A stretch of 58,708 nt of DNA, from NCBI GenBank assembly GCA_018304145.1, contig JAGVWU010000006.1, forward strand, positions 1-58,708, in the 5' to 3' direction. Below the pieces are notes generated by a model. The model was given only the letters and a program-made list of their open reading frames with translations. It was not told the origin of the DNA and made no database searches. This document shows positions 14,610-15,748 of the stretch, one piece after another (within the stretch, counting starts at the first letter, position 1; each line of letters opens with the position of its first letter). This DNA comes from Candidatus Pacearchaeota archaeon (GTDB lineage Archaea > Nanobdellota > Nanobdellia > Pacearchaeales > GW2011-AR1). A program made the translations under genes and the position numbers.

Positions 14610-14617
14610 TTTATAAA
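14610..14617. promoter_or_regulatory. Shared palindromic TATA box (TTTATAAA) between rpo7 and the sigma-70-like gene
   Basis: Box centre is 28.5 nt from the rpo7 ATG (14585) and 25.5 nt from the internal ATG 14639 of the sigma ORF. Confidence 0.5.
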
Positions 14618-14638
14618 GGTTTCTTTATGACTTTTATT

Positions 14639-15748
14639 ATGGCTGAATTAAATTGTTATTTAGGTCTTGCAGATTATTTGACTGATATAGGTAATCTACC
14701 TTTTGCATCATGCCCTTTAAATGAAGATTCTATAAGCTTTGCTAAGGAAAGAGAGAGAAGAAATATAAAGCTTGGAACTATTGTGCAAAGGTATCTTTTA
14801 ACTGAAAGAAGGTTATCAAATAAAGTTGAAGGTTTGGAAAAAGAATTTTTAGGAAAATTGGGATTAGCTGAACCTGTTTTATATGGAAATTTTGGAAAAA
14901 TAATGCAATGGACAAATGAATATAGAGAAAAAATTAAATCAACAAGAAAAAAATTAGAGGATTATAGGAGAGACAATTCTCCTGCTTATATTCAGGCAAA
15001 GCAAGTAATTTCTGAATCTTGCCTTTTTCTTGTTGTTTATTGGGCAAAAAAATATGCTGAAAAATTTAACTTAAATGTTAATGATTTGATTGGATATGGA
15101 AACAGAGGGCTGATGCATGCTGTTGAGAAATTTAATCCTAAAAGAAAGTGTCTATTCTCAACTTATGCAACTTTTTGGATTAGGCAGTCTATATCAAGAG
15201 GGATAGCTGATGAAGAATGCAAAGGAAATTTTTCACTCTCTTATCCAATGTATAAAAAGAGAGGTAAAATATTAAAGATAGAAGAGTTATTATTTTCAGA
15301 GTTGGGCAGGAATCCTAATGAAGAAGAAACAGCCAGAAAATATAATGAGGTTTATTGCTTAAAGGATTCCCGTAGCAGAATAAAACTTGAAGATGTAAAA
15401 GTTTTAAGGGCATTAAGACGAGTTTCAAGATTATCCTTGTTAGGCTGCGATAAAGATAGAGAATTTGATGTTGAAGATATTCGTTCAGAAGCCTCTTTTG
15501 AAATAGCAGCAAGAAACGATGGAGTTAGAGAAGTTTTGGATTATTTAGATAATTCTGGAAGATTTACTTCTGATGAGATAGAAGTTATAAAATATCGTTT
15601 TGGAATTGAAAGGGATCCAAGAACTTTGAAAGAAACAGGAACTATATTAAAATTGACAAGAGAAAGAATAAGGCAAATTGAAGCAAAAGCACTTCAAAAA
15701 TTAAAAAACCGTTTTGATCCTATGTACAGGCAGAGTCTTGTAGGATAA
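14639..15748 (+). CDS. Bacterial-type sigma-70 family RNA polymerase sigma factor homologue
   Basis: Region 2: [57 protein letters not shown]. Region 4: [43 protein letters not shown]. The ORF track starts at 14627, but TATA spacing favours ATG 14639. Confidence 0.85.
   Translation: [369 protein letters not shown]

Follow-up and report, generated by a model that had tools for sequence, protein, structure and literature searches.

We identified a gene for a bacterial-type sigma-70 factor in a stretch of archaeal DNA. The window, meaning the whole 58.7-kb stretch that was analysed (Candidatus Pacearchaeota archaeon, GCA_018304145.1, contig JAGVWU010000006.1, 1-58,708), carries at 14639..15748 on the forward strand a CDS of 369 aa, whose product is, judged from its sequence, a bona fide sigma-70 homologue of primary-sigma-like bacterial ancestry inside an archaeal chromosome. 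Sigma factors on one side and TBP/TFB on the other form the textbook divide between bacterial and archaeal/eukaryotic transcription initiation. For the explanation as a whole, we consider it an even call that a bacterial sigma factor was acquired and is now a domesticated accessory transcription regulator in an archaeon, no canonical sigma. Sigma-70 genes in these archaea are already known: the passage on sigma factors in Castelle et al. 2021 (PMC8204110) notes sigma-70 homologues in DPANN (fam00359), on Woesearchaeota-type contigs that are otherwise archaeal, and within that passage no anti-sigma factor is reported. The mention there is a passing one, as the original prediction had said. The window gene resembles fam00359 in lying on a DPANN contig with otherwise archaeal genes, a likeness by description and not by sequence. 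What it adds to that passage is a fixed slot between a PIN gene and rpo7, an archaeal promoter, rapid evolution, an N-terminal hairpin and patchiness. NCBI, too, already lists P0122, a protein from a Nanoarchaeia MAG, under the sigma-70 family factors.

The CDS was assigned from the open reading frame and its domain matches. The original prediction described near-consensus sigma-70 regions 2 and 4.2, and both motifs that it quoted are present in the protein. The Pfam models Sigma70_r2 (PF04542; 38.0 bits, cut-off 24) and Sigma70_r4 (PF04545; 46.5 bits, cut-off 24.1) match above threshold, and r3 (PF04539) gives a sub-threshold match only (12.7 bits vs a cut-off of 25.3). The sigma-70 superfamily model TIGR02937 scored 69.8 bits vs a cut-off of 42.9. 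NCBIfam RpoD_Cterm (TIGR02393) reached 147.7 bits over aa 124-362 and missed its equivalog cut-off of 354; the RpoD equivalog level was likewise missed for NF004208 (140.9 bits vs 555). Alignment by hhalign to 37 bacterial primary sigmas covered aa 111-359 with a probability of 100% and E=1.2e-56, and regions 2.1-2.4 were covered by both hhalign and phmmer. No Pfam match to TFIIB Zn-ribbon/cyclin, TFE winged-helix or TBP domains was found in the protein even at E<=10, and no CxxC zinc ribbon is visible in its N-terminal sequence.

The informational genes around the sigma gene are archaeal, as the original prediction had stated; the genes for Rpo1 and Rpo2 lie outside the window. The divergent neighbour is rpo7 (RpoE'; 13983..14585, reverse strand), which is 87-89% identical to its orthologues at two related loci (L002 and L006), and Spt4 (13571-13756) and S24e (13014-13442) follow on the rpo7 side, both on the reverse strand. 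A PIN_9-domain gene (15784..16212, reverse strand) is the convergent neighbour; most relatives have it immediately upstream of rpo7, in the same direction. Archaeal markers occur on both flanks, including Elp3, archaeal-type PheRS alpha/beta, a YGR210-type GTPase, RNase P p30 and Kae1. L006 is syntenic with the window for >20 kb. An independent, short JGI contig (L005) is identical across Spt4-Rpo7-sigma-PIN; ~790 bp downstream of the sigma gene, at a breakpoint near 16537, it turns to a bacterial L20 gene, with a GC content of 36.5% vs 29%. We found no phage or defence genes flanking the sigma gene, and no convincing direct or inverted repeats of the kind that mark mobile elements around it.

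Next to this locus, a sigma-like gene occupies the same slot in the same orientation at seven further archaeal loci of related Nanoarchaeia (L002, L006/L019, L007, L008, L010 and L027), and the rpo7-sigma synteny is conserved in relatives. GCA_028713045.1 is one further MAG with the gene. PIN directly adjoins rpo7 in about 34 related genomes or loci, a sigma-like gene was found in the slot at 5 of ~64 GTDB loci with upstream flank, and at other loci the PIN-rpo7 gap holds unrelated ORF families. Of the 80 Rpo7-related loci, the great majority bear the label Pacearchaeota, Woesearchaeota or Nanoarchaeota, and the sigma-positive ones group together in an Rpo7 NJ tree. The ancestral order is PIN and rpo7 side by side, transcribed from PIN towards rpo7, and the gap between them is an insertion hotspot. 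The sigma gene is accessory and patchy among relatives. Since it is one among several unrelated inserts in the slot, its link to rpo7 seems to be one of position and not of function. The pairing looks incidental, and an insertion hotspot explains it most simply.

The intergenic region between the two genes is short. The 53 nt between the rpo7 ATG (14585) and the sigma ATG (14639), with one palindromic box between them, are as originally described. The box, TTTATAAA at 14610..14617, fits the genome-wide TATA consensus and is separated by 21 nt from the sigma ATG and by 24 nt from that of rpo7; 28 copies were counted against 15.3 expected. TATA-like hexamers are most frequent 29 nt ahead of start codons, and TATA boxes end 21-22 nt before starts. 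This spacing also decided the start codon: an alternative in-frame ATG at 14627, giving 373 aa, is only 9 nt past the TATA box and thus too near, which makes 14639 the better start. Because the sigma start lies 21 nt past a standard TATA box of this genome, the mRNA is probably leaderless. The box forms part of a conserved block, TAAAAAAAGTAGATTTATAAAGGTTTCTTTATGA (14597..14630, forward strand), comprising an A-rich BRE-like stretch, the TATA box and the initially transcribed region, in which four genomes agree save at two positions. The motif TTTATAAAG[GC]TT is kept in 7/7 sigma loci, and an exact DNA scan of JGI metagenomes with the conserved block returned no matches. Going by these sequence elements, the sigma gene is read from an archaeal-type BRE/TATA promoter. 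The suggestion that it shares one promoter region with rpo7 stands for the window, where the TATA box is common to both, and does not extend to L002 and L006: these have 76 additional nt, which place rpo7 >100 nt away from that TATA, so the sharing is due to a 76-nt deletion specific to the window.

Like RpoD/SigA, the window protein has sigma-2, a linker/region 3 and sigma-4 in that order, and its predicted structure is best matched by Thermus and Taq sigmaA. Sigma domain 2 (regions 2.1-2.4; 14969..15214, forward strand) is the most constrained part, with dN/dS of 0.19-0.32. Columns conserved in bacteria are kept in 12 of 15 cases in region 2.2 and in 14 of 16 in regions 2.3-2.4. The -10 recognition residues Y430, W434, Q437 and R441 are retained; Y425C and W433F are altered. 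Unlike in RpoD/SigA, the core-binding positions L402, Q406 and E407 (E. coli numbering) have become N, G and Y, and both RIPVH of region 3.0 and the DSHLGDF finger are missing. Region 3 (3.0, 3.1 and 3.2 linker; 15215..15493, forward strand) is degenerate, with R451S, H455P and E458K in region 3.0, where 6/20 conserved columns are kept. The original prediction had noted that the RTIRIPVH segment is replaced, and a different 10-residue stretch does stand where RTIRIPVHM is expected. Insertions in regions 3.1 (11 aa) and 4.1 further set the protein apart from RpoD/SigA. Sigma domain 4 (regions 4.1 and 4.2; 15494..15715, forward strand), a helix-turn-helix placed by Pfam r4 and the alignments, keeps 18/22 conserved columns in region 4.2 and retains R584, E585, R586, R588 and Q589. 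Its -35 recognition helix, TRERIRQIE (15656..15682, forward strand), is identical to E. coli sigma70 R584-E591.

The N-terminal region (aa 1-110; 14639..14968, forward strand) is family-specific. It bears no detectable homology to region 1.1 or 1.2, in agreement with the earlier remark that the first ~120 aa are unlike sigma region 1: PF03979 and PF00140 did not match even at E<=10, a custom HMM of region 1.2 gave 1.6 bits, and hhalign left aa 1-110 unaligned. On the same grounds (HMM score, absence of a Pfam match and an hhalign alignment that begins at aa 111), we rejected aa 13-22 and aa 46-53 (GTIVQRYL) as candidates for a degenerate region 1.2. In place of regions 1.1/1.2, which RpoD/SigA possesses, the 110 aa are predicted to form a novel, long helical hairpin (H31-75 and the beginning of H85-127), and an AlphaFold/Foldseek overlay on Thermus sigmaA hints that this hairpin sits where sigmaA has its region 1.2 and non-conserved region. 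The motif RN..[LF]G.I[VI]..Y is kept throughout the extended family. A profile of the N-terminal 120 aa had zero matches among 5.8 billion proteins, a search that also missed the query proteins themselves. An alignment of five N-termini was too variable for building patterns, and patterns from three N-termini found relatives in neither GTDB genomes nor JGI metagenomes.

We then compared the archaeal family, which consists of nine proteins (ORFs of 284-379 aa), five of them close members. The recognition helix is near-invariant among the five (one R-to-K and one I-to-L change), R584/E585/R586/R588/Q589 are kept in 7/9 proteins, and all nine have common indels in regions 3.1 and 4.1 relative to bacterial sigma. 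Region 3.0 and the sigma finger are unconserved in the family, and canonical sigma motifs erode stepwise in L007, L010 and L027. The sigma gene is the fastest-evolving of its syntenic block, 4-8 times faster than its neighbours: identities are 39-56% vs 72-91%, dN is 0.30-0.59 vs 0.05-0.27 and dN/dS 0.43-0.61 vs 0.04-0.23. Relaxed constraint or an arms race could be the cause of this pace instead. ORFs are intact in 9/9 lineages despite a dS of about 0.7-1.3. The gene is under purifying selection (dN/dS <1) with its synteny kept, and it is therefore not a lineage-specific pseudogene, a case that the original prediction had raised. Pairwise BLAST alone does not demonstrate monophyly of all nine proteins. 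No single bacterial donor clade emerged; the best matches were spread over Clostridia, Verrucomicrobiota, Patescibacteria and others at similar scores. P0004 and P0005, considered as closer relatives, proved to be normal bacterial RpoD proteins that carry duplicated segments and come from a single assembly. A scan of IMG/VR with the whole sigma protein found no close relatives, using patterns that detect near-identical sequences only.

The data directly show the identity of the gene, its archaeal residence, synteny and promoter type, its evolutionary rate and where it is constrained; that it was acquired a single time, binds DNA and has a regulatory role we infer. A bacterial primary-type (RpoD/SigA-like) sigma gene without region 1.1 was probably acquired once and would have been placed in reverse orientation between PIN and rpo7 in the ancestor of one Pacearchaeota/Woesearchaeota (Nanoarchaeia, DPANN) subclade. 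There it has become fully naturalised, with host-like GC, a standard BRE/TATA promoter and the canonical leaderless distance, and vertical inheritance followed, with loss or replacement in several lineages and very fast divergence. Selection maintains a sigma built of three domains, with the helix bundle of sigma-2 and, in sigma-4, the helix-turn-helix together with the -35 recognition helix; region 3.0 and the sigma finger are not preserved, and neither, in the more divergent members, are the residues for -10 melting. The window protein would thus no longer be a canonical sigma on a bacterial core enzyme and is most likely a non-essential, lineage-specific transcription regulator in an archaeal cell, in which sigma-4 would bind a -35-like DNA element and sigma-2 would be retained for a protein partner. 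N-terminally truncated sigma-70 is known to bind a -35-like element without core enzyme. In the 58.7-kb window, a scope that a small regulon elsewhere in the genome would escape, sigma-70-type promoters showed no excess: TTGACA-N16-18-TANNNT occurred 2 times vs 3.4 expected, TTGACA 39 times vs 36.8, promoter-like sites 18 times vs 22.2, and TTGACA upstream of 2/65 genes vs 1.3 expected. A non-canonical role is the most likely fit to the lack of promoter excess, the unconserved region 3.0 and finger, and the patchy distribution.

In the subfamily of the window protein, region 2.2 and the residues that bind the single-stranded -10 element are strongly conserved, which is hard to reconcile with a plain binder of duplex DNA. 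Sigma-2 may, on this hint, have kept its contact with an RNAP-like coiled-coil, and perhaps with melted DNA. In archaeal RNAP the Rpo1 clamp coiled-coil is homologous to that of beta', and TFE and Spt5 bind there; the only known role of region 2.2 in bacteria is to bind the beta' coiled-coil. The protein might accordingly dock with sigma-2 on this clamp and either take part in initiation, as an alternative or auxiliary factor, or compete with TFE/Spt4-5. Within the protein dN/dS is lowest in region 2, a DLIxxGN.GL-like motif in the well-kept region 2.2 is recognisable even in L008 and L010, and the multi-domain sigma architecture persists over 22-56% identity; the known core-binding hot spots are precisely the positions altered, as expected upon a change of partner. 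However, the gene is missing from most close relatives and its pace of evolution would be unusual for a factor on a conserved RNAP surface, the hotspot accounts for its adjacency to rpo7 and spt4, and the window lacks an excess of -35/-10 motifs. Archaeal RNAP, moreover, is not known to have the flap-tip helix that positions sigma-4 in bacteria. We therefore regard docking as unlikely, and its more specific form, a re-tooled sigma on the clamp coiled-coil that competes or cooperates with TFE and Spt4/5 while sigma-4 or the hairpin touches DNA or RNAP, as somewhat more doubtful. If true, this would be the first sigma working on a TBP/TFB-type machine, with lineage-specific promoter selection or clamp control in DPANN.

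The rapid divergence, the loss or replacement of the gene in many relatives and the wearing away of sigma motifs in the three divergent members would also suit a functionless or decaying relic of horizontal transfer, drifting in a permissive intergenic slot. We give this little credence, because the 284-379 aa frames stay intact in nine lineages of AT-rich genomes at a dS of about 1, dN/dS is <1 everywhere and lowest in region 2, the recognition helix is near-invariant, and the promoter block is nearly identical in four genomes. Rapid evolution would fit a host-parasite conflict in which the sigma acts on a bacterial-type RNAP. This could belong to a bacterium that hosts the episymbiont or lives beside it, much as the RNAP of a host is redirected by phage sigma factors, or its genes could lie in another part of the archaeal genome. 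The beta'-binding, -10 (Y430, W434, Q437, R441) and -35 (R584, E585, R588, Q589) residues are largely those of a working sigma. Yet the hot spots Q406 and E407 are replaced, region 3.0 and the finger are degenerate, and no secretion signal is evident in the sequence. The known hosts of DPANN archaea are archaea. Furthermore, these genomes have normal TBP, TFB and TFE and no anti-sigma factors, according to the sigma-factor passage of Castelle et al. 2021 (PMC8204110), and we consider a bacterial-type target very improbable. The last reading, an assembly chimera or binning contaminant fusing bacterial and archaeal DNA, is effectively refuted: the switch of L005 to a bacterial L20 gene means that chimeras do arise in such data, but the rpo7-sigma-PIN junctions are the same in two independent assemblies and the arrangement recurs at the further loci named above, GC is uniform across the window's contig at 29%, and the sigma promoter is archaeal.

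Compared with known systems, the accessory regulator that we favour has partial parallels. Plastid sigmas SIG1-6 are nuclear-encoded and bacterial-type, are expressed by a non-bacterial transcription system, and serve the retained bacterial-type PEP; by analogy, the window sigma may be seen as a bacterial-type gene in a non-bacterial genome, although no PEP-like bacterial-type polymerase is known in DPANN. It also resembles sigma-like proteins of phages and defence systems (huge-phage sigmas and MzaA of the MZA system) in being divergent, fast-evolving and accessory, and the MzaA model scored 135 bits on it vs a cut-off of 800, no better than generic RpoD. Unlike RpoD/SigA, it is an archaeal gene behind a TATA-box promoter, with a bacterial core enzyme not in evidence.

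In conclusion, a passing remark in the literature becomes a defined, testable family with nine members, a fixed slot, a mapped promoter and a constraint map. Excitement is tempered by the accessory, patchy and fast-evolving nature of the gene and by a pairing with rpo7 that is simplest as a hotspot insertion. The sigma gene is nevertheless stably inherited and under selection, behind an archaeal promoter, in archaea without a known bacterial core enzyme. It thus represents a natural experiment on what a sigma is capable of without its polymerase, and it may be a free DNA-binding regulator or, more provocatively, may bind to archaeal RNAP at the homologous clamp coiled-coil.

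We found that the plus-strand gene read by the original prediction as a bacterial-type sigma-70 factor, whose ORF starts at 14627 or 14639 and ends at 15748, is a sigma-70 homologue with primary-sigma ancestry. The prediction was correct, because the ORF matches the Pfam models Sigma70_r2 (38.0 bits, cut-off 24) and Sigma70_r4 (46.5 bits, cut-off 24.1) and passes the sigma-70 superfamily model TIGR02937 (69.8 bits vs 42.9). Its top NCBIfam models are those of RpoD, with RpoD_Cterm scoring 147.7 bits over aa 124-362, well short of the equivalog threshold (354). Profile-profile alignment of the archaeal sigma family with 37 bacterial primary sigmas covered aa 111-359 (probability 100%, E=1.2e-56), and the top PDB matches to the AlphaFold2 model (mean pLDDT 72.7) are Thermus and Taq sigmaA, covering nearly the whole length. 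Two further high-scoring proteins from GCA_029782595.1 (P0004 and P0005, on L003 and L004) were rejected as relatives: they are bacterial RpoD with internally duplicated sigma segments, which inflated their first-search scores. P0004 carries r1.2-r2-r3 twice and P0005 a repeated C-terminus, and these duplications look like assembly artefacts.

Counted over bacterial-invariant columns, with residues numbered as in E. coli sigma70, the protein keeps 12 of 15 in the 2.1-2.2 helix bundle, 14 of 16 in regions 2.3-2.4 (including FSTYA, W434, Q437 and R441) and 18 of 22 in region 4.2. Among the five close members, the recognition helix TRERIRQIE (R584-E591) hardly varies, showing one R-to-K and one I-to-L substitution. 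The classical core-binding hot spots are altered (L402N, Q406G, E407Y), as are Y425C and W433F; the RIPVH motif of region 3.0 is lost (R451S, H455P, E458K; 6/20 columns kept), and so is the DSHLGDF finger. No sequence test detected region 1.1 or 1.2 in this protein; in their place, AlphaFold2 predicts a long helical hairpin at aa 31-127, which a comparison of nine archaeal proteins (this one and its sigma-like relatives) confines to the window's subfamily. All nine share the N-terminal motif RN..[LF]G.I[VI]..Y and, relative to a bacterial sigma, carry insertions in regions 3.1 and 4.1. In the divergent members (loci L007, L008, L010 and L027), W434 and Q437 are gone, as are parts of the recognition helix in the last two.

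Neither sigma-70-type promoters nor TTGACA showed an excess, whether in the whole window or upstream of genes. We infer that the protein acts as a lineage-specific regulator and not as a canonical sigma. Since sigma-70 deprived of its N-terminal region binds promoter DNA in the absence of core enzyme, this protein, which has no region 1.1, could function as a DNA-binding protein on its own. The conservation of sigma-2, whose known functions in bacteria depend on RNAP, would fit binding of sigma-2 to archaeal RNAP at its homologous clamp coiled-coil, a reading we consider unlikely. Action on a bacterial polymerase seems very improbable.

We compared evolutionary rates between the window and three related loci (L001, L002 and L006). 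Sigma identities are 56, 44 and 39%, with dN of 0.30-0.59 and dN/dS of 0.43-0.50, against 87-89%, 0.06-0.07 and 0.07-0.08 for Rpo7 and 73-84%, 0.09-0.18 and 0.09-0.12 for PIN (dS is near saturation, so absolute ratios are rough). The corresponding values are 86%, ~0.085 and 0.06-0.08 for orf186 and ScpA, and 64-75%, 0.16-0.27 and 0.11-0.21 for BacA, MT15 and GluRS, compared with L006 only. No gene in the block evolves faster than sigma, which changes at 4-8 times the rate of most neighbours at non-synonymous sites. Despite its fast evolution the gene is under selection and is not a lineage-specific pseudogene: all nine lineages have an unbroken ORF, no segment reaches a dN/dS of 1, and constraint is strongest in region 2 (0.19-0.32). 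Sigma-2 and the recognition helix of sigma-4 bear most of the constraint, and there is little likelihood that the gene is a decaying relic.

The palindromic TATA box TTTATAAA occurs 28 times in the window against 15.3 expected, a count reached in 0 of 100 shuffles; several copies sit between divergent genes. TATA-like hexamers peak 29 nt upstream of the start codons of window genes, and the gap from TATA end to ATG is 21-22 nt for most of them, so transcription in this genome appears to run mostly from TATA promoters and to yield leaderless mRNAs. TTTATAAA itself ends 21-22 nt before many starts (e.g. 3738, 4809, 8397, 12745, 20402, 24931 and 29719). The copy at 14610-14617 lies exactly 21 nt before the sigma ATG at 14639; ATG 14627 was ruled out as too near the box. 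The surrounding block TAAAAAAAGTAGATTTATAAAGGTTTCTTTATGA (14597-14630) is the same in the window, L001, L002 and L006 except at two positions, nearly unchanged across four genomes despite synonymous sites near saturation, and TTTATAAAG[GC]TT is kept in 7/7 sigma loci. Sigma thus possesses a dedicated archaeal promoter that is conserved. The proposal of a promoter region shared with divergent rpo7 (13983-14585, minus strand) was borne out in part. One palindromic TATA does lie near both ATGs in the window, 24 nt from that of rpo7, but L002 (742-830) and L006 (9875-9965) carry 76 extra nt in this spacer relative to window 14586-14596, with ATGTT repeats at the borders. The 76-nt deletion in the window takes away the separate rpo7 upstream region, so that rpo7 lies 24 nt from the sigma TATA; the shared box is thus peculiar to the window's genome.

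The sigma gene is resident in a DPANN chromosome. Its immediate neighbours encode Rpo7, Spt4, S24e and a PIN_9 protein (15784-16212, minus strand), and Elp3, archaeal-type PheRS alpha and beta, a YGR210-type GTPase, RNase P p30 and Kae1 lie further out on both sides. GC content is 25-34% across the window, with no step at the gene, and the stretch from Spt4 through sigma and PIN, as far as ~16537, recurs at 100% identity on an independent JGI contig (L005). The same arrangement, with sigma divergent from rpo7 and convergent with PIN, recurs in L002 (sigma 42-44% identical). L006 (GCA_028713045.1, 'Candidatus Nanoarchaeia archaeon'; sigma 36-39% identical) is syntenic over >20 kb in the order Elp3 ... 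GluRS, ScpA, DUF7670, S27ae, S24e, Spt4, Rpo7, sigma, PIN, orf186 ... BacA. With archaeal flanks, even GC, an identical junction and this synteny, an archaeal/bacterial assembly chimera at sigma can safely be dismissed. Past ~16537, inside ORF 16263-16658, L005 (3270-3788) continues as unrelated DNA with a GC content of 36.5% vs 29% and a gene for bacterial ribosomal protein L20; the short contig is probably chimeric at this join, or else the switch may mark a strain-level breakpoint.

Scanning GTDB species genomes for Rpo7 gave 80 loci, and all but a few bear the label Pacearchaeota, Woesearchaeota or Nanoarchaeota. In ~34 of the 80, PIN directly adjoins rpo7 on its upstream side, with both genes pointing the same way (gap <=80 nt), which we take as the ancestral state. 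A sigma-like gene occupies this gap, always on the opposite strand, in five GTDB loci (L007, L008, L010, L019 = L006, and L027); Pfam confirmed r2 and r4 in L007, L008 and L010, and r4 alone in L027. Elsewhere the gap holds unrelated ORF families: 130-aa (minus strand), 200-aa (plus strand), 134-aa and ABC_trans_CmpB-like 154-aa (L008, L011, L014, L016, L017, L020-L022, L031, L035, L045, L047, L057, L068, L073 and L078), the 130-aa family alongside sigma in L008. Insertions have therefore recurred in this gap, a hotspot beside a conserved operon, and no functional reason is needed to account for the head-to-head pairing with rpo7. In an NJ tree built from Rpo7, the sigma-positive loci all belong to a single subclade that also includes sigma-negative genomes; the gene is accessory and vertically inherited within it. 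The subclade, common indels and N-terminal motif suggest one acquisition followed by losses, with the caveat that in pairwise BLAST the divergent members are about as near to bacterial sigmas as to one another. Three loci with archaeal Rpo7 68-82% identical to the window's (L023, L032 and L049) are deposited as 'bacterium', 'Candidatus Dojkabacteria bacterium' and 'Patescibacteria group bacterium' and probably represent DPANN contigs placed in the wrong bin; in the rpo7 region, L049 and L047 appear identical.

Other genes of the window also drew attention. ORF 16263-16658 (plus strand, 131 aa) has an HExxH motif (VHELLH), no Pfam match and homologues in L007 (57% identity) and L016 (31%), and is absent in L006; flanked by PIN and the widely conserved orf186, it too is a variable gene. 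Orf186 (16702-17262, plus strand) weakly matches HTH_7, and the L006 orthologue of orf229 (17799-18488, plus strand) faintly matches DUF3368, a PIN-like family. Both are kept beside PIN in >50 of the 80 related loci and appear to be uncharacterised core genes of the window's clade. At 42950-43882 (plus strand) and 41959-42351 (minus strand), one ORF gives a 68-bit match to PF18894, 'putative phage metallopeptidase'; immediately before it comes an unannotated 150-aa ORF, and it has a PIN-domain gene nearby. The neighbourhood may represent a small mobile or toxin-antitoxin-like islet.

The close subfamily is rare, with five clusters among ~15 billion proteins, beyond which GTDB genomes hold four divergent syntenic members. 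The matched protein P0122 already carries an NCBI annotation as a sigma-70 family factor of a Nanoarchaeia MAG. The original prediction's statement that sigma-like genes had been mentioned in passing for DPANN agrees with the literature: sigma-70 genes (fam00359) are reported there, especially in Woesearchaeota, by Castelle et al. 2021 (PMC8204110), who excluded mis-binning, noted no anti-sigma factors and called the mechanism unclear. We found no functional follow-up on these genes in the literature. In conclusion, sigma-70 in DPANN is a known but unexplained phenomenon, to which the window's gene is a well-characterised addition.
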